From NCBI GenBank assembly GCA_964586355.1, contig CAZPGO010000011.1, forward strand, positions 1 through 32,000: DNA of 32,000 nucleotides, read 5' to 3'. A model generated the notes under the pieces. It was not told where the DNA came from and searched no databases. It was given only the letters and a program-made list of their open reading frames with translations. The DNA is from an uncultured archaeon (GTDB lineage: Archaea; Iainarchaeota; Iainarchaeia; Iainarchaeales; CSSED10-239). The position numbers and the translations under genes are program-made. Positions 726 through 31,225 of the stretch are shown one piece after another. Every line of letters begins with the position of its first letter. Within the stretch, counting starts at the first letter, position 1.

Positions 726-935
726 ATGATCGAAAACACAACATTACTTATTGTAATAGGAATAATAGCAATTTGGGAAATGATTTGGAAAGGAATAGCT
801 TTATGGAAAGCAGCAAAAAATAATCACACAAGATGGTATGTTTTTTTGCTGATCTTAAATACTGCTGGACTACTTCCAATATTATACATATATTTTTTTT
901 CTAAAAAAAAACAAAAAAGCAAAAAGATTTTATAG
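726..935 (+). CDS. Small two-TM membrane protein, DUF5652-like
   Basis: 69 aa with two hydrophobic helices. WKGIALWKAAKNN...W..FLLILNT.GLLPILY resembles the DUF5652 family common in CPR/DPANN genomes. The C-terminus is lysine-rich. Confidence 0.55.
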   Translation: MIENTTLLIVIGIIAIWEMIWKGIALWKAAKNNHTRWYVFLLILNTAGLLPILYIYFFSKKKQKSKKIL

Positions 936-3239
936 ATCTTCTTCTTTTTTATTATCTTTTAATCTTTTAACCATCTTTGGAACAAAGTCTTCCTTATACC
1001 ATTTCTTCCATTTTTCAAGCAGATCAGAGTAGTTGACTTTACCATGTTCTTCAATATAACTCTCTTTTAATAACAATAATTTATTATGAGTAATAACTGT
1101 TTGTTCAGCTTCCAATAATTCAAAAAACCGAAGCTCTCTTGCAAGTTCTACCTGATAACTTTTTTCTTCAGCAAGCATCTTAATATTATCCCAAACTTCT
1201 TCAATATTCATTCCTGATAATGTACAGATCTTTGTAAATAGTTCAGAGTCTTTTAGAGCATCTTCATTTAATATTAAAGAATCCTTACTAGCATCAAAGC
1301 TCATAAGATCCAATAATCCTCCCTCAGCATCAGGATCTTCGTTCCAGTGTTTTTTTACTTCTGTAATCTGTACAACCCTTCTGTAAGATTTTAAAGACCC
1401 TTTAAACCTAATAGGCTTAGCAACAACAACTAAATCTGTTGCTTTAAAAGAAGTTGTTGGAACTTCTAAGTCATTTACCACTCTATCCCAAACAGCATAG
1501 GCAGAGTCTGCGTGAATTGTTCCCATAACAACATTACCTGCAGCACCAACCCTCATAGCCTCATAAAGCACTTTTGCTTCAACTGATCTAACTTCTCCAA
1601 CAATCAAAGCAGAGTCTCCAAGCCTTAGAGCCGTTCTTAGCGCATCCTCTGGCTTTACTTCTGCAGATTCTTCGTCTGCTCCAACTGATGATCTTGTTTT
1701 TAATCTCTGTGCATTAAATCCAATATCTTTCATATACAAAACAGGCAACTCTAAAGTATCTTCTTGAACAATAATTCTTTTATTTTGTAAAATTTCAAGC
1801 ATTAATGCAGTCATTAAAGAAGTTTTTCCTGCACCTCTAGATCCTGCTACAAGTATTGTTGAGTTGTTGTCTATAAAGAATGATAATAATCCAGCAGCAA
1901 GAGGATTAAGGGACTTAACATTAATCAATTGTGGTAGTGTCCACGGAGTCTCTTTATGCAATCTAAAAGCAAAAGCTATTCCATCTGTTGCTAATGGATG
2001 ACCAATAACTGCAACTCTAGTATTAACATCAGGAAGATCAAAATCCAAAATAGGATGAGCATCATCAAAAGGTCTTCCAGACATTGCTCTCATTTTTCCA
2101 ACAAGGCTTTCTGCATCTCTTTCTGTGTATAGGATATTTGTTTGGCATTGCCCAAATTGACTATGAACTAAATAAATTGGTCTTCCTCCGATTGGTGAAT
2201 CAATGTATACATCTGTTATTCTTTTGTCTGATAATAGTAGTTCTAATATTCCGTAACCAATAGTATATCTTGTAACAATCTCTGATAGGGTGTTAATATC
2301 ATCAGGGCTTAAAGAAATTCCATATCTTCTACCAATATCAGCAATTGTGCTTTGATAGATTCTTTGAAAATATTTTTTTGTTGAAGATCCACTTGTTAAA
2401 GTTACTTTCCCTGGTTGATAGTTCGCAACAGTTTCTTTTGTTTTAGATAATACAAAGTAATGGTCTGGGGATAAAGTATACTCTGGTGGATTAATATAAT
2501 AAGTGTATTCAATTTTATCAGGATTTTTAAATATTTGAACACTGGTGTTAAGTACTGGATATTCATCAACCAGTTCCAGTTTTTCAGAGTCACCAAAAAG
2601 TAATTGTGATCCAATAAATGCTGGTTTTATTTGTGCTTCAAATACTGTTTTGTAGATAGCTGTTAGATCATTTAGATCTTTTGCTTTCATTATTATTGGT
2701 TTTAGTGTTTTTATAAATGTTGATTCTTCATATTGTTCTTTTAATTTTGTTAGGTGTTTAAAATTAGCTAAAAAACATTTTTCACATGGTTTTCCTTTTT
2801 GATCTTCTGCTCTTTGTCTGTTGTTTTCTATTTCTCTAGTAATACTTATATATGATGCTATTGGATCATATGATAATAGATCTCTTGCAAACTTAATAAT
2901 ATTATTATGCCTTTCAGGATAACACTCATCACAATCAATATCATTTACTCCTAGATGTGAGCTTACCCATACAGCTCTATTTTCAAAATCTAGTAAAAGG
3001 TTTACCATTTCTTTTAGATATTTTGTTTGTTCTTTATTATATACTCTTTCATAAACTTCTGCTAAAATAATTTCATCAGCATCAACAGTTTCAAGAAGTT
3101 TTAGAATATGGAATCTACATCTTGGATCATCAGAAAGTGATGTGTTATAAACACAGTTTCTACAATCCACCACCAATTTTTTTTTATTGCCTTCAGTATC
3201 TACTGCATAATCTCCTACAGTGTAGTTTCCTATTTTCAT
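930..3239 (-). CDS. Type II/IV secretion / type IV pilus assembly ATPase (VirB11/FlaI/PilB superfamily) with a large Cys-containing N-terminal extension
   Basis: 769 aa. Walker A is GSRGAGKTS, Asp box QEDTLEL, Walker B/Glu LIVGEVRSVEA and His box GTIHADS. The N-terminal region of about 300 aa carries CRNC...C and C.EC / CEKC cysteine pairs. Confidence 0.85.
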   Translation of the reverse strand: MKIGNYTVGDYAVDTEGNKKKLVVDCRNCVYNTSLSDDPRCRFHILKLLETVDADEIILAEVYERVYNKEQTKYLKEMVNLLLDFENRAVWVSSHLGVNDIDCDECYPERHNNIIKFARDLLSYDPIASYISITREIENNRQRAEDQKGKPCEKCFLANFKHLTKLKEQYEESTFIKTLKPIIMKAKDLNDLTAIYKTVFEAQIKPAFIGSQLLFGDSEKLELVDEYPVLNTSVQIFKNPDKIEYTYYINPPEYTLSPDHYFVLSKTKETVANYQPGKVTLTSGSSTKKYFQRIYQSTIADIGRRYGISLSPDDINTLSEIVTRYTIGYGILELLLSDKRITDVYIDSPIGGRPIYLVHSQFGQCQTNILYTERDAESLVGKMRAMSGRPFDDAHPILDFDLPDVNTRVAVIGHPLATDGIAFAFRLHKETPWTLPQLINVKSLNPLAAGLLSFFIDNNSTILVAGSRGAGKTSLMTALMLEILQNKRIIVQEDTLELPVLYMKDIGFNAQRLKTRSSVGADEESAEVKPEDALRTALRLGDSALIVGEVRSVEAKVLYEAMRVGAAGNVVMGTIHADSAYAVWDRVVNDLEVPTTSFKATDLVVVAKPIRFKGSLKSYRRVVQITEVKKHWNEDPDAEGGLLDLMSFDASKDSLILNEDALKDSELFTKICTLSGMNIEEVWDNIKMLAEEKSYQVELARELRFFELLEAEQTVITHNKLLLLKESYIEEHGKVNYSDLLEKWKKWYKEDFVPKMVKRLKDNKKEEDL

Positions 3240-5282: not shown

Positions 5283-6644
5283 ATGTTAAAAAATATAGAT
5301 TACAAAAATAAAGAATATGATAAAATTTTAGAAAAAATCTTTTCAAAAAAAAAGATTTCCCAAAATATTTTTGAGCCCTATTTTTTAAAAAATTTATCTT
5401 CTTTAAATAAAAATAATTTTTTAAATTTATTATCTAAAATAGATACCAAAAATATAGCTGCTCCTGAGATTATAGAGAATACAAAAAAAACCTTTTCTAA
5501 ATATTTAATTTCTGAATTTGCAAATTATCTTGTGGATTATTTAATAGGTTATAGAGAGCTTTCTAAGTTAATGACTTCTAATGATTATGAAGAAATAATG
5601 ATAAATGATTATGATAAGGTGTTTGTTTTTTCTAGAGATAATCAATTTTATAAAACAAATGTTGTTTTTGAAGAGAGAAATTATTCAGAATTTATTAAGT
5701 ATTTAAAAGACACTTTATCAACAGACTTTGATACTAGAGAGTTTATTGATGGAATATTGCCGGATAGATCTAGAATAAATATAGTTTCTAAATCAATATC
5801 TGGATTTAATGTTATAACTATTAGAAAATATCTAAAAAAACCATTAAACATTATAGATCTAATAAAAAATAAAGAGATTACTCCTGAAATTGCAACCTAT
5901 TTTTGGATAGCTATAGATGGTCTAAATGTAAAACCAGCAAATCTTTTTATCTGTGGTGGAACTAGCACAGGTAAAACAACTTTGTTAAATGCTTTATTAG
6001 ATTTTGTGCCTTCTGACTCTAGAATTATTGGTGTTGAGGATACTTTAGAAATTGATTATAGTAATTTTGAAAACTATGTTTGTTTATCTAGCAACATTTC
6101 CAATGAAAATAGTCTTTATGATATTTCAGTAAATATTATGAGAATGAGACCTGATAGAATAATTATTGGCGAAACTCGCGGAAAAGAAGTAAGAGCTTTG
6201 TTTTTAGCTATGAGCACAGGTCACGAGGGTTGTTTGTCTACAATACATGGTAATAATGTTAATGATTTACTAAACAAGTTATCTTCTTATCCATTTAATA
6301 TAGATCAAAACTATTTGTCTTTGTTAAATGTTGTTGTTACTTTAAAAAAAGTATATGTTAATAGAAAAATAAATAGATTTGTTTCAGAAATATCTGAGAT
6401 CTCAAAAATAGGTAATATTACTACTAATGAGATCTATTCTAAAGAAAATTCAGAAAAAATAAATTTTATGGCTTCTAGTTTTTTTGAAAAGGTTTGTGAT
6501 TTATTAAATATTAAAAAAACAGATCTAAAAAAAGTTATTGAATATAGATTAAATATTATTAATAAAATGGTAGCTGAAAATATTACTGATACTAAACGAA
6601 TAAGAAAAATAATTTCTGAAAATAGAGAAATAAGCTTAGACTAA
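5283..6644 (+). CDS. Type II/IV secretion system ATPase (VirB11/CpaF/TadA-like)
   Basis: 453 aa. Motifs: ITIRKY, Walker A GGTSTGKTT, Asp box GVEDTLEI, Walker B RPDRIIIGETRGKE, His box STIHGNN. Confidence 0.85.
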   Translation: MLKNIDYKNKEYDKILEKIFSKKKISQNIFEPYFLKNLSSLNKNNFLNLLSKIDTKNIAAPEIIENTKKTFSKYLISEFANYLVDYLIGYRELSKLMTSNDYEEIMINDYDKVFVFSRDNQFYKTNVVFEERNYSEFIKYLKDTLSTDFDTREFIDGILPDRSRINIVSKSISGFNVITIRKYLKKPLNIIDLIKNKEITPEIATYFWIAIDGLNVKPANLFICGGTSTGKTTLLNALLDFVPSDSRIIGVEDTLEIDYSNFENYVCLSSNISNENSLYDISVNIMRMRPDRIIIGETRGKEVRALFLAMSTGHEGCLSTIHGNNVNDLLNKLSSYPFNIDQNYLSLLNVVVTLKKVYVNRKINRFVSEISEISKIGNITTNEIYSKENSEKINFMASSFFEKVCDLLNIKKTDLKKVIEYRLNIINKMVAENITDTKRIRKIISENREISLD

Positions 6645-9799: not shown

Positions 9800-10648
9800 A
9801 TGAAAAAACAATCAGCAATACATGATAAAAGGTTTATACTAAATTTTATTATTTTATTTTTAGCTGTGCATATCTTAGGGCTTTTTGTTGCACACCACTA
9901 TTCTTTATTAGATCTGCAATTATCTGTTTTTGGAGATCCTAATAGCATCTATAATGCTTTGTTTATTGTTGGCTATATTTTATTTTTAACTTTGATGATC
10001 TTGTTAATGAAAAAACTTTTTAAAAGCGGGAAATATATCTATCTATTTGAATTTTTTGCTTTGTTTTTTGCTATGGGTCTTGTTTTTGAGATCTTTTTAC
10101 CTTTTTTACATGCTTATTTTTTAGCAGGTATTTTATTATTTTTTAAAAATCTATTTGAATCTGAAAAAATAAAATTATGGTTTAATAATTTTGTGTTAGG
10201 GGTTTCTTTAGCAGGTGCTGGAACCCTCTTAGGGTTAGGGCTAGGTCTTGTTCCAATAATTGCTTTGTTATTTTTATTAGCAGTTTATGATATTGTTGCT
10301 GTATTTTACACCAAGCACATGGTTTCTTTAGCAAAACTAATAATTTCAAAAAAAGTTTCTTTAATATTTTTACTACCTTCAAAAAAAAGAGTGTATAGAC
10401 TTGGTGGTGGCGATTTTGCTATCCCTTTAGCTGTTTCTGCTAGCTTGTTTAATATCTTAATTAGAAAATTTAGTTTAGTAACAACATTAATACCAATTTT
10501 TTTTGTGTGGGTTGCGGCAATTTCTGGTATGTTATTAACTTTTTATATTTTAGATAAAAAAAAGATAAATGCTTTACCAGCACTACCTATTCAGGTTTTT
10601 TTAATGATATTAGTTATTGTTATTTCTTATTTTATTTTACTATACTAA
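9800..10648 (+). CDS. Presenilin/signal-peptide-peptidase-like GxGD intramembrane aspartyl protease (archaeal PSH, A22 family)
   Basis: Polytopic membrane protein with YD (LLAVYDIVAVFY), GxGD (RLGGGDFAIPL) and PAL (NALPALPIQ) motifs in the canonical order. Confidence 0.8.
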   Translation: MKKQSAIHDKRFILNFIILFLAVHILGLFVAHHYSLLDLQLSVFGDPNSIYNALFIVGYILFLTLMILLMKKLFKSGKYIYLFEFFALFFAMGLVFEIFLPFLHAYFLAGILLFFKNLFESEKIKLWFNNFVLGVSLAGAGTLLGLGLGLVPIIALLFLLAVYDIVAVFYTKHMVSLAKLIISKKVSLIFLLPSKKRVYRLGGGDFAIPLAVSASLFNILIRKFSLVTTLIPIFFVWVAAISGMLLTFYILDKKKINALPALPIQVFLMILVIVISYFILLY

Positions 10649-19951: not shown

Positions 19952-22000
19952 TTATTTACTAAGTTCTTCTTGTCTTAGTAAACTATTCCATTTATTATCA
20001 ATATCTTCTTGAATAGATCTCAAAACCTCTTTATTTTTTTCCTTTAATACTTCTTTAAACTTTGTTTGTGTTTTTAAAAATTCTTCAATAGATATTCTGT
20101 TTTTTGGTTTATAGTTAATAGTTAATTTTCCATCCTCATATTCATAAAGAGGCCAGAAATTACTTTCTGTTGCAAGTTTACTGATAGCAATTGTTTGTGA
20201 TGGATCTGCTTTCATATTTGTTGGACACGCAGCATATGCAATTAGAACTGCTGGGCCTTTTTTTTCAAAGGCTTTTTTTGCTTTGTTATACATATCTATT
20301 TGGTTATAAGGATTTACTTGAGCAACATAAGGGATATTGTGAGCAATTGCTATTTGGGTTAGATCTTTATTATACTCTATTTTACCATAAGAATTTACTC
20401 CAGATGGAGTTGTACTTGTTGATGCTCCTTTTGGTGTGGCTGATGATCTTTGATTCCCGGTATTATGAACTACAATTCCATCTGCAATAAAATTATGTTC
20501 TCCTTCAACTCTTAAATCAAAAGTTTTTTCTTTGCCAATTTCTTTAATGTTTTTTATAATTTCAGTATCAAAATTTTTATTTCCAATTAAAAAGTTTTGG
20601 TATTTATATTGAGTAGGATATTTTTCAATATTCCAAGGATATTTTTTACTAAAACATATGCTATAATATTTACTATCTTTTAATAACGGACGATAAACCA
20701 CAAATGTGCCTTTTTCTCTTTTTTGAATTGTTATTTTTCCAACTCTGTAATCTAATGTTTGTAATAATAATCTTAATCTTAAAATAAGTTCTTTACTTGC
20801 CGAAAGATATCTACAACTGTCTTTTTTTTTTTTTTTATAAATATACCCATCAGATAATAATAATCCTTCAATAAACGCTTCTTTTTGATCGTCAGGAATT
20901 GTATAGACCCAAGACGGAATTATTTTGTTTTTTGCACCGTGTTTAAATCCTAATGATTCAATAAATTTAGCAATATTTACTGAATATAGGTAAATATATA
21001 TTTTATCTGTTTTTATTTGTTTTAATTTAAATATTTTTTCACATGCTTTGATACATTTATCCCTACCAACTGTGCCTTCTGGTAATGCAAATCCAATTTC
21101 TCCTTTTTCTGTTCTAGACCAACCATCGCCAATATAAAGTCCTAAAAATAGCATTAAATCTTTGGTTGATTTTATAGGTATTTTAACATTATTTATACAA
21201 TTAACTTTGTAATCTCCTTTTTTTACAAGTTTTATTTTTTCAAAAGTAAAAGCTTTTTTCCCTTCTAATTTTTTTAAAGTAATAACTTGATCTCCTTTTT
21301 TTAATTCCGTAAGTGTTTTCCAAAATAATGTGTTTGGTTTGCCTCTAGGCTTTTTATCAACAATTAAAAAAGGATGATTTCCTGTTGCTTTAATATTGTG
21401 GTGAAATGTTTCAATTTCATACACTTTTTTAACGCCATTATTAAAAACGCCACTACAGTTTTTAAGAACCAATTTATGAGTTTTTTGATCAAAAGCATAA
21501 ACTTTTTCACCTACAATAATTTCTGAAACTTTTTTTAATCCATTTTCTGTATAAATTAATGAATCTTTGCTTAAACAATTCATATACCCTTCGTTTGTGT
21601 AACAAAGATAAACAAAATTATGTCCCCTCTCCAGAGCTCCAGACAATGCGGATAAGCCAATATCAAATGATCCGCCGTCTCCTGCAATTACCAAAAAATT
21701 TATGTCTTTTTTTATTTTCCCTTTTTTCTTTAATGCCAAATAAGCCTTTTCCACTCCAGAAATTGTTGCAGCAGAATTTGCAAATGCAGAATGAATCCAA
21801 GGCATATTCCAAGAAGTTTGTGGGTAGATTGTTGTTGTTACTTCTGCACATGATGTTGCACTCGAAACAACAACAGGATCATCACTAGCACTAGCAACAG
21901 TTCTAGAGATTATTCCTATAGGGCACCCTGAGCAGGTTCTATGTCCTGACACCATCACATTTTTTTTTTCTATTCTTTCTGCAAGTTCTTTTATATTCAT
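19952..22000 (-). CDS. porB: Pyruvate:ferredoxin oxidoreductase beta (TPP-binding) subunit, interrupted by an in-frame intein
   Basis: N-extein (141 aa) has the CSGC Fe-S/TPP region and GDGGSFDIG...NEGYMN. C-extein (169 aa) starts TGNQRSSATPKGASTSTTP. Joined exteins total about 310 aa, the normal PorB size. It is the last gene of the porG-D-A-B order. Confidence 0.9.
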   Translation of the reverse strand: MNIKELAERIEKKNVMVSGHRTCSGCPIGIISRTVASASDDPVVVSSATSCAEVTTTIYPQTSWNMPWIHSAFANSAATISGVEKAYLALKKKGKIKKDINFLVIAGDGGSFDIGLSALSGALERGHNFVYLCYTNEGYMNCLSKDSLIYTENGLKKVSEIIVGEKVYAFDQKTHKLVLKNCSGVFNNGVKKVYEIETFHHNIKATGNHPFLIVDKKPRGKPNTLFWKTLTELKKGDQVITLKKLEGKKAFTFEKIKLVKKGDYKVNCINNVKIPIKSTKDLMLFLGLYIGDGWSRTEKGEIGFALPEGTVGRDKCIKACEKIFKLKQIKTDKIYIYLYSVNIAKFIESLGFKHGAKNKIIPSWVYTIPDDQKEAFIEGLLLSDGYIYKKKKKDSCRYLSASKELILRLRLLLQTLDYRVGKITIQKREKGTFVVYRPLLKDSKYYSICFSKKYPWNIEKYPTQYKYQNFLIGNKNFDTEIIKNIKEIGKEKTFDLRVEGEHNFIADGIVVHNTGNQRSSATPKGASTSTTPSGVNSYGKIEYNKDLTQIAIAHNIPYVAQVNPYNQIDMYNKAKKAFEKKGPAVLIAYAACPTNMKADPSQTIAISKLATESNFWPLYEYEDGKLTINYKPKNRISIEEFLKTQTKFKEVLKEKNKEVLRSIQEDIDNKWNSLLRQEELSK
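20462..21577 (-). mobile_element. Intein (372 aa) with LAGLIDADG homing-endonuclease domain inside porB
   Basis: Cys1 (TGT at 21575-21577; CLSKDSLI, block A). TGNHPF (block B, TxxH). LAGLIDADG motifs LGLYIGDGW and FIEGLLLSDGYI. C-terminal FDLRVEGEHNFIADGIVVHN (blocks F/G) is followed by Thr+1 (ACC at 20459-20461). Confidence 0.9.
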
Positions 22001-28613: not shown

Positions 28614-29825
28614 TTATTTACTTAATATTTCTTTTACTTTTTCTATATTATTATTTTTTAACAGATCATATATTCTTTTATAATCAAAATTTGAAGAAAT
28701 GGGTAATTGTTTAATCTGTTCAAAAAAGATCTCAAAAGAGGTATCATTAATATTTACATTTTCTTTAGATTGTATTTCTTTTAATTTATCTATACTTTCT
28801 TTTAATGATTTTTCTTCAAGGTTATTAGTTATTGATAATATAACTTTTTCTTCATATTCTTTTTTTAGATTAGAAATGTTTAGATCTTTATTATATTCTC
28901 CAAGATTTAGATCTCCCTTTATTCTTACTCTTATAAGTGGTTTTTTTGTTTCATTTTTTGTTTCTATTATTTTTTTATTAATTTCTTCTTTTATTTTTTG
29001 TAAGATGTTTTCTGTTTTTTCTTTATTAAATTTAAGATCAATATAATAAGTTTTTCTTACATTTTTAATTATTTCAAAATCTATAGTTTTTAAAATAGTG
29101 TCAATTACAAAAAAACCCTTTTCTTTTCCAGTTTCTAATTTTTTTAATTGTGTAGTAACGGTTGATCCTGGTAAAATAAAAGTAGTTCCATTTTCTAATT
29201 TTTCTAAGCTTGACCAATGAAGGTGACCATTAATAATTAGATTAAAATCTTTTGGCAAATGTGATAAGGAAATAGTTGAGATCATATCATCTTCAAAAGG
29301 AAGATATTCTTTTATAGATTGATGTAACATTAATATGTTATATTCATTTTCAATAGGTTGTGGATTCCATTCCTTTAATACCTCTAAAGCATATTTGTCA
29401 GGAATTCCACTCATTCCAAAAACATTTATTTTTTCCGAATCTTTTGTAATTGTTATTTTTGATTTATGTAAAAAAGTTGTAAAACCAATAGCTTCTAATA
29501 TATCTACAGTGCTTTTTTGGTCTTTTCCTCTGTATTCGTGATTACCTATTATTGAGATCATTGGTATTTTTAATGTTCTATTTGAGTGGTTTTTAAGATC
29601 TAGATTATTTTCAACATTTATTTCAGACAAAAGGTTTATAGCATCATAAAAAATCTCTTGATTTGGGGTGTTTTGATCAAAAAGATCTCCTGGTGCTAGA
29701 ATCAGATCAACTTTTTTTTCTTCAATTTGTTTAAATGCTTCTTTGAGATTAAAAAAAGAGTCTTTTTCTAGTTGTGAACCCCAATCCACTCCAAGATGCC
29801 AATCACTAATAACTGCTATTTTCAT
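28614..29825 (-). CDS. mre11: Mre11/SbcD-like metallophosphoesterase nuclease
   Basis: Calcineurin-like phosphoesterase motifs are in order: ISDWHLG, GDLFD, GNHE, HQ, GHLH. The likely start is MKIAVISD (ATG at 29823-29825); the track ORF extends 16 codons further. The C-terminal coiled region is lysine-rich. Confidence 0.8.
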   Translation of the reverse strand: MKIAVISDWHLGVDWGSQLEKDSFFNLKEAFKQIEEKKVDLILAPGDLFDQNTPNQEIFYDAINLLSEINVENNLDLKNHSNRTLKIPMISIIGNHEYRGKDQKSTVDILEAIGFTTFLHKSKITITKDSEKINVFGMSGIPDKYALEVLKEWNPQPIENEYNILMLHQSIKEYLPFEDDMISTISLSHLPKDFNLIINGHLHWSSLEKLENGTTFILPGSTVTTQLKKLETGKEKGFFVIDTILKTIDFEIIKNVRKTYYIDLKFNKEKTENILQKIKEEINKKIIETKNETKKPLIRVRIKGDLNLGEYNKDLNISNLKKEYEEKVILSITNNLEEKSLKESIDKLKEIQSKENVNINDTSFEIFFEQIKQLPISSNFDYKRIYDLLKNNNIEKVKEILSK

Positions 29826-29924
29826 ATATATTTTATGGTTAGAAATCTTTTTTAAATGAAAACTTTTACACATATTTATTTTTAAATAACAATATAAACT
29901 TTTAGATCTTTTATATTTCTTATT

Positions 29925-31067
29925 ATGCTTAATAAAAGATCTGTTTCCCCATTGATCGCAACAATTTTATTAGTTGTTCTCTCTGTTATATTGATCACTG
30001 TTGTTTTAACATGGGGGAAAGGTTTTTCAAAAGAGAAATTAGATCAAACAAAAATAAAAGATACAAGTTATATTGGTTTAATAACAGCAAAACAAGTTTC
30101 AGATAATGCTTTTTATTTAATAACAACAAAAAACCTGCCATCTACTGAAATAATAGCATACAAAATTATTCCGTCATTAGAGCATCCTATCTTTTATTTA
30201 CTTGAAGATAAGATCTATACTTTATCTGAATCAGTTAACTTAACACCAAACTCATCTACTCTTTTTACAATAGATTGTGCTCCAGAAAAAAAATATACTG
30301 TTGTTTTAATTACTAGTGATAATAAATATATTCCAATAGAAATAAACAGCAATCTTTCTTACACTTATCTTGGTTGTATTGAAAAAAGTTGTATGGCCTA
30401 TAAAGAGAAATTTGTTAACTTGCCAGATGGTAATTATCCAATACAAATAGATAGTTTTCTATTTGATGTTTATTGTGACATGACAACAGATGGTGGTGGT
30501 TGGGCAATTGTTGCAACAAATAAAAATAATAGTAATCCAAATCATTTATCTGCAGCAAGTAGAGAAGTTTTTATAAATAATAATTATTCTGTTATTCCAG
30601 AAATAAGTACAATAGATAATGTTACAAAAGAAGGATACATTGCTTTAAAATATTGGACAGATCTAGCAAAAACAAAAGAACTAAGATTTGTTGTTGGGCA
30701 AAACACTCTTAAACTTGGTGGTTGGGAGTTTAGATCTGGACCAAGTTCTGATTGGTTACATTATTGGAATTATGCTGAATGTACTGGTCCTTATGCTGAT
30801 AGTTGTTGGGCTGCTAGTGATAATTGTGGTTTTACTTTTGACACACCCAGTGGAGAAAAAAACAGAGGCAGCATTTGCTATGGTTGGGCATATACAAGCA
30901 GCAACAACATATTTGCAAAAAAAAATTCTCCAAGATCTGGGTATTGGTTAGGTTGGTATTATAATGTGAGTAGATTTAATTTATTAGGAAATGCGCCAGA
31001 CACATTGTCTCCAGAATGGATGGATGTTGCCGGTGCTGTTGGCGACGCTCATATTGCTGTAAGATAA
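29925..31067 (+). CDS. Archaeal type IV pilin-like protein (class III signal peptide) with C-terminal fibrinogen-related (FReD-like) domain
   Basis: The N-terminus MLNKRSVSPLIATILLVVLSVILITVVL matches the archaeal pilin N-terminal motif ([KR]-x-VSP[VL]IAT[IV]LL). Residues ~151-380 start C..SC.AY......DG.Y.I.....FDVYCDMTTDGGGWAIV, the hallmark of fibrinogen C-terminal globular domains. Confidence 0.75.
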   Translation: MLNKRSVSPLIATILLVVLSVILITVVLTWGKGFSKEKLDQTKIKDTSYIGLITAKQVSDNAFYLITTKNLPSTEIIAYKIIPSLEHPIFYLLEDKIYTLSESVNLTPNSSTLFTIDCAPEKKYTVVLITSDNKYIPIEINSNLSYTYLGCIEKSCMAYKEKFVNLPDGNYPIQIDSFLFDVYCDMTTDGGGWAIVATNKNNSNPNHLSAASREVFINNNYSVIPEISTIDNVTKEGYIALKYWTDLAKTKELRFVVGQNTLKLGGWEFRSGPSSDWLHYWNYAECTGPYADSCWAASDNCGFTFDTPSGEKNRGSICYGWAYTSSNNIFAKKNSPRSGYWLGWYYNVSRFNLLGNAPDTLSPEWMDVAGAVGDAHIAVR

Positions 31068-31154: not shown

Positions 31155-31225
31155 GCCTTGGTGGCAGACCGGTCATGCATTCGCCTGCAGAGCGAAAGAA
31201 TGGGGTTCGACTCCCTACCAAGGCT
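31155..31225 (+). tRNA. tRNA-Cys (GCA)
   Basis: Cloverleaf folded by hand. Acceptor GCCTTGG/CCAAGGC, anticodon stem TTCGC/GCGAA, loop CT-GCA-GA, T arm TGGGG-TTCGACT-CCCTA. Discriminator is T (U73, the Cys identity element). No encoded CCA and no intron. It is a GC-rich island in AT-rich DNA. Confidence 0.9.

Follow-up and report, generated by a model that had tools for sequence, protein, structure and literature searches.

In lectins built on the fibrinogen-related domain (FReD), Ca2+ and ligand are bound within the C-terminal ~120 amino acids (aa), the P subdomain; IPR002181 is the entry that we take to be the fibrinogen C-terminal domain. Among the closest described systems, PilC of Streptococcus sanguinis joins a pilin moiety to Ig-like and ConA-like lectin modules, binds glycans and has been modelled at the pilus tip (PMC9934059), and a survey of bacterial modular pilins counted more than 1,200 of them in 264 architectures, its Dataset S1 giving 8 proteins for IPR012902-IPR002181 and 2 for IPR012902-IPR013545-IPR002181 (PMC8179133). 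That survey was keyed on the bacterial pilin motif IPR012902, and archaea are mentioned nowhere in its main text (PMC8179133). Beyond these modular-pilin papers, our literature searches turned up nothing pertinent on prokaryotic FReDs; they found no publication on archaeal or DPANN pilin–FReD proteins, and none on swappable-head scaffolds or cross-domain likeness of FReD heads in archaea. Little has been learnt about the way in which DPANN archaea recognize and attach to their partners or to surfaces, and the Iainarchaeota are without a cultured representative. Here we consider a gene for a modular pilin-like surface protein (29925..31067, + strand) that lies in a 32-kb window, i.e. the whole 32,000-nucleotide (nt) stretch of contig CAZPGO010000011.1 that was analysed, and whose product an original prediction, made from the sequence alone, had described as an archaeal type IV pilin fused to a lectin-like FReD. 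With moderate confidence we read this product, which comes from an Iainarchaeum-like member of the DPANN archaea, as a modular adhesin resembling type IV pilins, minor and probably tip-located.

The open reading frame (ORF) is complete, with an ATG start and a stop codon, and its product of 380 aa has the N-terminus MLNKRSVSPLIATILLVVLSVILITVVLTWG; as in the modular pilins of the survey (PMC8179133), a pilin module (aa 1–151) is joined by a short linker to a domain that is not particular to pilus biology, here the FReD-derived head (aa 152–380). The identical protein was found intact on seven metagenome contigs from four JGI samples, and NCBI labels it a 'hypothetical protein' on a 91-kb contig. 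A leader peptide, MLNKRS (aa 1–6; 29925..29942, + strand), precedes a predicted prepilin-peptidase site after Ser6, which we read as the class III site MLNK-R(-2)-S(-1)↓VSPLIATILLVVLSVILITVVLTW, i.e. KRS↓VSP. When site conservation was counted in an alignment of the query and 45 relatives (n=46), K or R occupied position -2 and Ser position -1 in 46/46, +1 was V, L or I, +2 was Ser in 46/46 and +3 was Pro in 41/46. Archaeal prepilin-peptidase substrates carry a charged residue at -2 followed by G, A or S at -1, with the site placed before the H-domain, and the sites of Haloferax volcanii PilA read RAVS (PMC4371748), and the query N-terminus conforms to these published rules. The leader is followed by a hydrophobic N-terminal α-helix (aa 7–40, with the H-domain at aa 7–30; 29943..30044, + strand) and by a β-sandwich 'stalk' (aa ~50–151; 30072..30377, + strand) ending at the Cys118/Cys151 pair. 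An AlphaFold2 (AF2) run on the full-length protein, for which we used a 70-sequence mixed alignment with canonical FReDs included, modelled aa 9–150 with a predicted local distance difference test (pLDDT) score above 90 as a long helix (aa 9–40, pLDDT ~93–95) and a seven-stranded β-sandwich. Foldseek against the PDB returned, as the top matches to the predicted module, six archaeal type IV pilus (T4P) subunit structures, the best being 8fk7 of Pyrobaculum calidifontis (E 6.5e-6), with 8q30 (Aap of Sulfolobus acidocaldarius), 6nav (S. islandicus), 6w8x (S. solfataricus), 8fj5 (H. volcanii) and 6w8u (P. arsenaticum) making up the rest. In sequence logic and predicted fold, the designation of aa 1–151 as pilin-like is well supported, in keeping with the class III signal and pilin helix that the original prediction had recognized; prepilin cleavage after Ser6 is predicted from the motif, and polymerisation is putative.

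The first ~110 residues of the head are clearly homologous to FReDs as judged by profile comparison. This N-terminal half (aa 152–260; 30378..30704, + strand), which corresponds to the FReD A subdomain and the first part of B, matches NCBIfam NF040941 (GGGWT_bact, 'fibrinogen-like YCDxxxxGGGW domain') with a score of 48.6 bits (E 5.8e-13; cut-off 30), and has the A-subdomain features in place, namely C156 and C184 in register and the YCDMTTDGGGW motif. Against 73 canonical prokaryotic FReDs, hhalign gave a probability of 99.3% (E 3e-20) over 102 columns, laying head residues 5–113 onto FReD positions 9–114 of 228. Moreover, a profile of three head sequences matched intelectins/XEEL in the PDB (7e1e, 4wmo and 4wmq; E 3e-7 to 1e-5) and also tenascins, the tenascin alignments spanning up to ~140 residues and reaching about residue 166 (E 1e-4). 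The strings CYGWAY, GYWLGWYYN and VYCDMTTDGGGW (aa 182–193, nt 30468–30503), on which the lectin-like assignment had been built, are present exactly as reported. The claim of a C-terminal FReD of ~230 aa stands for these ~110 residues and is not supported for the last ~120, which score like shuffled sequence (see below); the Pfam check proposed with it was likewise divided, Fibrinogen_C (PF00147) scoring 22.5–23.7 bits against a gathering threshold of 22, over profile positions 18–52 of 221 (35 residues), and the pilin family PF07790 falling short of its own threshold. We conclude, on this evidence, that the head descends from a fibrinogen-related domain.

The pilin module itself belongs to a scaffold family. 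Its N-terminal ~145 aa are common to at least 45 further proteins (33–47% identity) that have other C-terminal domains, mostly LamG/Laminin_G_3 (PF13385), in four cases FGE-sulfatase (PF03781), and in others no known domain. Weak matches to TIGR02537 were obtained for 13/19 family members (best E 1.8e-4) and to the UpsA pilin model for 7/19. Since C118 is kept in 40/46 members and C151 in 42/46, whatever head follows, the module boundary is placed just after C151. In a scan of GTDB genomes for the N-terminal family, the scaffold was present in Ca. Iainarchaeum/ainarchaeum and Diapherotrites metagenome-assembled genomes (MAGs), with Nanopusillaceae and Nanoarchaeota YN1 sharing the helix only; a GTDB genome scan that used peptides of the query itself recovered no relative. 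There is one copy within the window. Scaffold genes are frequently in tandem and differ between closely related genomes: an 11-kb contig (Ca. ainarchaeum STD2_171) bears six, and in GCA_030154545.1 six surround a PPDK gene. On contigs from related Iainarchaeota MAGs (L005, 2572–12273; L006, 1504–8426), such arrays of up to six scaffold paralogues have mostly LamG heads and some without an assigned domain, and those on L005 flank a PPDK gene. Because a conserved pilin scaffold bears LamG, FGE-sulfatase-like, other or FReD-derived heads, the family seems to point to diversification of surface-binding specificity by means of swappable heads.

These results can be accommodated in the following scheme. 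The precursor would be exported and its class III signal cut after Ser6 (KRS↓VSP) by a PibD-type peptidase; the helix (aa 7–40) would then pack into the core of a T4 filament built by FlaI/PilB-type ATPases, or anchor in the membrane until then; the Ig-like β-sandwich (aa ~50–151), predicted with high confidence, would serve as pilin globular domain and spacer; and the 229-aa head (aa 152–380) would be displayed as the binding module, FReD-derived by homology over its first ~110 residues and with the pocket-forming part apparently remodelled beyond recognition. Since the head is bulky, the protein most likely serves as a minor subunit at the tip and not as the main building block, by analogy with PilB and PilC of S. 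sanguinis.

The observations that weigh against this reading concern, in part, the second half of the head (aa 261–380; 30705..31064, + strand), a W/Y/C-rich orphan region ending ...GDAHIAVR, with four Cys, eight Trp and a W+Y+F content of 17.5%. Aligned alone with hhalign, it scored 16.2 against a column-shuffle null of 12.4±2.7, a value reached by 14/150 shuffles; a hidden Markov model (HMM) of the C-terminal half of canonical FReDs gave -5 bits, and 1598/2000 shuffles scored higher; and the DxDxD Ca2+ site is absent from the head. AF2 gave a pLDDT of 30 for the head alone (3-sequence alignment) and of 30–50 for aa 160–380 in the full-length run (30–40 for aa 261–380), leaving no usable head model for a fold search, so that the structure prediction proposed earlier as a check upheld the pilin module (pLDDT above 90) but did not confirm a ficolin/tachylectin fold. 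The NC...WWYxxC disulfide signature is absent as well: BLASTP against one canonical pilin–FReD is colinear up to head residue 199, and the mapping that it gives has FDTPSGE at the loop and lacks the second Cys. For aa 261–380 there is no PDB match below E 1, and neither Pfam nor NCBIfam gives one at E<=10. In 5.8 billion protein clusters just two proteins with the same head were found, P0001 (74% identity) and P0002 (77%), the only close homologues of the head among ~15 billion proteins, in which aa 261–380 are conserved at 76–80%; with 74–80% identity and all Cys and Trp invariant, these indicate a real, constrained protein. Among 1.84 billion cluster representatives, an exhaustive HMMER search with the head profile gave 744 matches, all but P0002 essentially at profile positions ~8–60, and no intermediate relatives that bridge aa 261–380. 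Two mappings of the P subdomain were rejected, namely GYWLGWYYNVSRFNLLG onto WWYxxCxxSNLNG, made by eye and not significant, and the hhalign maximum-accuracy (MAC) mapping of AEC..DSCW onto NC..WWYxxCW, which is not significant either and conflicts with the former. A local jackhmmer search over extracted FReD segments that reached position ~200 was set aside as non-evidential for its very low column conservation and falling occupancy, and an intelectin-type C-terminal region (Ca2+/diol site) was rejected on the lack of a PDB match for the C-terminal 120 aa. It thus appears that the presumed ligand-binding half has either diverged beyond recognition or been replaced, a divergence reminiscent of intelectins and yet not related to them. 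With the pocket-forming half remodelled beyond recognition, the ligand of the head may be a glycan, an acetyl group or something else, and the glycan recognition and host-adhesion role originally proposed for it are pure inference.

To the same side belong observations on the signal and on the setting of the gene. Pfam PF07790 Pilin_N reaches 18.0 bits where its cut-off is 25.2, and TIGR02537 18.1 bits where it is 20; class III signals are also found on non-pilus proteins, e.g. sugar-binding 'bindosome' subunits (PMC4371748); and the neighbours of the pilin-like gene are housekeeping genes (Mre11-like phosphoesterase, tRNA-Cys, PPDK-like and RadA). In the 32-kb window and the next 10 kb, no prepilin peptidase (Peptidase_A24), PilC/FlaJ platform or other pilin genes were found and no pilus operon was seen around the gene, whose own N-terminus is the single class III-like one in the whole window. 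The gene at 9800–10648 (+ strand) was rejected as a PibD/FlaK-type pilin peptidase; it encodes a presenilin-type, PSH-like intramembrane aspartyl protease of the presenilin/signal-peptide-peptidase family, a GxGD protease (78 bits against a cut-off of 125). Two pilus-type ATPases do lie in the window, as had been stated, both of the FlaI/PilB superfamily and T2SSE family and encoded 23–29 kb from the pilin-like gene. One, of 453 aa (5283..6644, + strand), is a possible assembly ATPase (Pfam T2SSE, E 2.9e-27; best NCBIfam model FlaI, 200 bits against a cut-off of 550), and the other, of 769 aa (930..3239, - strand), matches T2SSE over aa 403–607 (E 6.2e-17; best NCBIfam model FlaI, 159 bits, below cut-off) and consists of a core at aa ~300–690 preceded by a ~300-aa N-terminal extension without a family match. 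No PilC/FlaJ-type gene was seen adjoining either ATPase gene, both products weakly match the bindosome ATPase model BasE, and a functional link of either to the pilin-like gene is possible.

Considered together, these observations leave room for several other readings. One that we entertain tentatively, and that overlaps the modular-adhesin reading on architecture, is that the head is not a lectin: the FReD A/B scaffold would have been kept while the new W/Y/C-rich C-terminal region binds protein, lipid or mineral, or is structural or oligomerising. The shuffle-like score of aa 261–380 against the FReD P subdomain and the absent Ca2+ site and NC...WWYxxC signature favour such a head, and the intelectins, its best PDB sequence matches, provide a precedent in which a FReD N-terminal region is joined to a very different ligand part; yet aromatic-rich surfaces are typical of carbohydrate-binding sites, the sister paralogues bear LamG (ConA-like) heads, which are usually lectins, and the alignment with a canonical pilin–FReD remains colinear to head residue 199. 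A chance motif, a decaying pseudogene or an annotation artefact, to which the borderline, 35-residue Pfam match might be taken to point, we regard as already refuted by the NF040941 match (E 5.8e-13), by hhalign (E 3e-20 over 102 columns), by the intact identical ORF on seven contigs from four samples and by two homologues, 74–80% identical, that keep all Cys and Trp.

Where the head is displayed is a separate matter. The protein may be a membrane-anchored surface receptor that is never polymerised, its class III signal and helix serving only to anchor it or to place it in a short pseudopilus or an assembly resembling a 'bindosome', with the head binding a substrate or a surface near the cell. 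Sulfolobus substrate-binding proteins and many PibD substrates of unknown function do use class III signals (PMC4371748), the gene is outside a pilus operon with neither platform protein nor peptidase found nearby, the 229-aa head is bulky, and both ATPases weakly match BasE; we nevertheless think this arrangement unlikely, in that the best matches to the predicted fold of aa 9–150 are subunits of archaeal pili in their assembled form, the genes of archaeal adhesion pilins often lie apart from those for biogenesis (e.g. H. volcanii pilA1-6), and modular pilins of bacteria whose heads are just as bulky do enter the pilus, at its tip (PMC9934059, PMC8179133). More improbable still, in our judgement, is a major filament subunit that presents FReD-derived heads along the whole shaft as a multivalent 'lectin brush'. 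Globular domains do form the outer surface of archaeal pili, the family has several copies, which is common for major pilins, and a linker around C151 could let heads splay outwards, but an extra 25-kDa domain per subunit would crowd the T4P lattice, the characterised modular pilins are minor and tip-located (PMC9934059, PMC8179133), and no small companion pilin was found in the window.

The original prediction had called a FReD on a pilin an unusual architecture, a view that the 112 best prokaryotic FReD matches do not bear out. Within this set, archaeal class III-type N-termini occur in 11/112 (P0205, P0231, P0236, P0246, P0261, P0262, P0274, P0276, P0301, P0303 and P0306) and bacterial N-methyl pilin N-termini in 6/112 (P0248, P0255, P0260, P0266, P0268 and P0279), so that ~17/112 are pilin-fused, and bacterial pilins with IPR002181 are likewise in Dataset S1 (PMC8179133). 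The source labels include Aenigmatarchaeota (P0261, 'fibrinogen-like YCDxxxxGGGW domain-containing protein'), Nanoarchaeota (P0276, 'fibrinogen-related protein'), Candidatus Paceibacterota, 'flagellin-like protein' and 'pseudopilin PulG', the single bacterial fusion with a taxonomic label being P0248 (Paceibacterota). The plan of pilin plus FReD is thus not very unusual, and our gene is a strongly divergent variant of a recurrent prokaryotic modular pilin–FReD plan. Canonical fusion heads are complete FReDs with the signature FTTFDADHDxxxxNC...WWYxxCWxG...WIR and are 40–83% identical to one another; between archaeal-type and bacterial-type pilins identity is 50–61%, i.e. as close as within one domain, and the query head is an outlier (26–39% identity to them in local alignments). 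The stalks of the canonical fusions are unrelated to the query stalk, aa 1–43 alone being alignable, and common ancestry of the entire fusion with the canonical archaeal pilin–FReDs was rejected, the signal and helix alone being shared. Since the stalks under FReD heads are unrelated, such heads must have been joined to different pilin scaffolds on more than one occasion.

The likeness of the heads on archaeal-type and bacterial-type pilins suggests inter-domain transfer of the FReD head module, with the cross-domain similarity apparently lying in ultrasmall lineages. On an 806-kb bacterial metagenome contig (L018, 6785–9230), adjacent genes encode 409-aa N_methyl pilins, one with a LamG head and the other with a Fibrinogen_C head, an alternation that looks the same as that in the archaeal family of the query. 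As a speculative and rather doubtful extension, DPANN archaea and ultrasmall (candidate phyla radiation, CPR-like) bacteria might share a horizontally exchanged pool of pilus-displayed heads (FReD, LamG) grafted on unrelated scaffolds, from which the present head was drawn and its ligand half rebuilt into a new W/Y/C-rich fold; we consider it because the heads are 50–61% identical, the stalks are unrelated and both domains have tandem pairs of LamG and FReD pilins. FReD-like domains are also found in very large bacterial proteins of up to 6,800 aa, with up to 15 in tandem (P0050-P0062, P0174, P0240-P0300), and a conserved Bdellovibrio family of ~475–490 aa carries two; our searches turned up no publication that connects these proteins with Bdellovibrio.

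With regard to the organism, the window has a GC content of ~28% and archaeal genes for MCM, topoisomerase VI A/B, aIF2-beta, aIF1A, RIO kinase and RPA. Since its MCM and acetate kinase fall into clusters of at least 90% identity with proteins of 'Candidatus ainarchaeum sp.' MAGs, we assign it, by these sequence clusters, to an Iainarchaeota (Diapherotrites)-type DPANN archaeon, which agrees with the DPANN origin guessed at the outset. The pilin-like gene lies between a divergently oriented Mre11-like phosphoesterase gene (28614–29873) and tRNA-Cys (31155–31225), with a PPDK-like gene, RadA and a restriction-modification pair 3' of it. Beyond the window end (L001, 14970–16699 and 18736–20187), a gene for an NgoPII-type restriction enzyme is paired with a DNA methylase gene, and the same stretch encodes a 483-aa DsbA/thioredoxin-like protein that could be relevant to the disulfides of an 8-Cys surface protein. 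On another contig (L019, 6802–9333), a canonical archaeal class III + FReD gene adjoins the gene of a NurA nuclease, and after it comes that of another, small class III protein; the closeness to DNA-end-processing genes in both places (NurA there, Mre11-like here) may be coincidence. Elsewhere in the window, the pyruvate:ferredoxin oxidoreductase beta subunit (TPP_enzyme_C; 19952–22000, - strand; 682 aa in total) is split by an intein with a LAGLIDADG homing-endonuclease domain, and a TTG-start ORF at the window edge, possibly truncated (80–661, + strand), gives a match (E 5.6e-16) to AbiEii, the nucleotidyltransferase toxin in a type IV toxin–antitoxin system.

The locus and its relatives provide a concrete, testable set of candidate adhesins, and this comparison set, with its swappable-head scaffolds and its FReD heads that are alike across domains, is more interesting than the gene itself. 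Canonical pilin–FReD heads that are more than 50% identical across archaeal and bacterial ultrasmall lineages suggest that recognition modules move between domains, and, if a shared pool of heads did exist, the present one would be a lineage-specific host- or surface-recognition module and an entry point to partner choice in the Iainarchaeota. Its binding half is unlike any characterised lectin, and its structure and ligand would be new information. For the same reason, the function of this orphan head cannot be read from that of ficolins or intelectins.

Finally, set against known systems, the protein resembles S. sanguinis PilB and PilC in that a pilin moiety with a class III signal is followed by an Ig-like spacer and then by a binding module that was grafted on (PMC8179133, PMC9934059); the ConA-like lectin of PilC is comparable to the LamG (ConA-like) heads of most query paralogues, and in the S. 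sanguinis papers a bulky module implies a tip location (PMC8179133, PMC9934059). In contrast to the S. sanguinis pilins, the signal of the query is of archaeal type, with neither the N-methyl motif nor Glu5, and so is its predicted pilin fold; its head, known by sequence and prediction, is a strongly remodelled FReD and not a ConA or vWA domain. With the canonical prokaryotic pilin–FReDs (P0261, P0276, P0231/P0246/P0274, P0248 and P0279) it shares a three-part plan of pilin signal and helix, a ~100-aa stalk and a FReD-type C-terminal head starting SC...YCDMTTDGGGW, whereas its stalk is unrelated to theirs and its head is without the P-subdomain signature. The A-subdomain sequence and disulfide are common to it and to both the animal FReD lectins (ficolins, tachylectin-5A, tenascin/FIBCD1) and the intelectins (XEEL, ITLN1), and, like the latter, it continues from a FReD-like N-terminal part into a C-terminal part that is divergent and closes with a hydrophobic strand and Arg; unlike either, it is prokaryotic and pilin-fused, and the Ca2+ and ligand sites of these lectins have no detectable similarity in it. 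Closest in the pilin module are the archaeal adhesion pilins (H. volcanii PilA1-6, Sulfolobus Aap/Ups and Pyrobaculum), with their R-[A/S]↓V-S-type site, helix and β-rich globular domain, and with genes that, as here, are often unlinked to biogenesis genes (H. volcanii pilA1-6, PMC4371748); unlike these single-module proteins of ~130–140 aa, the query bears an extra 229-aa head.

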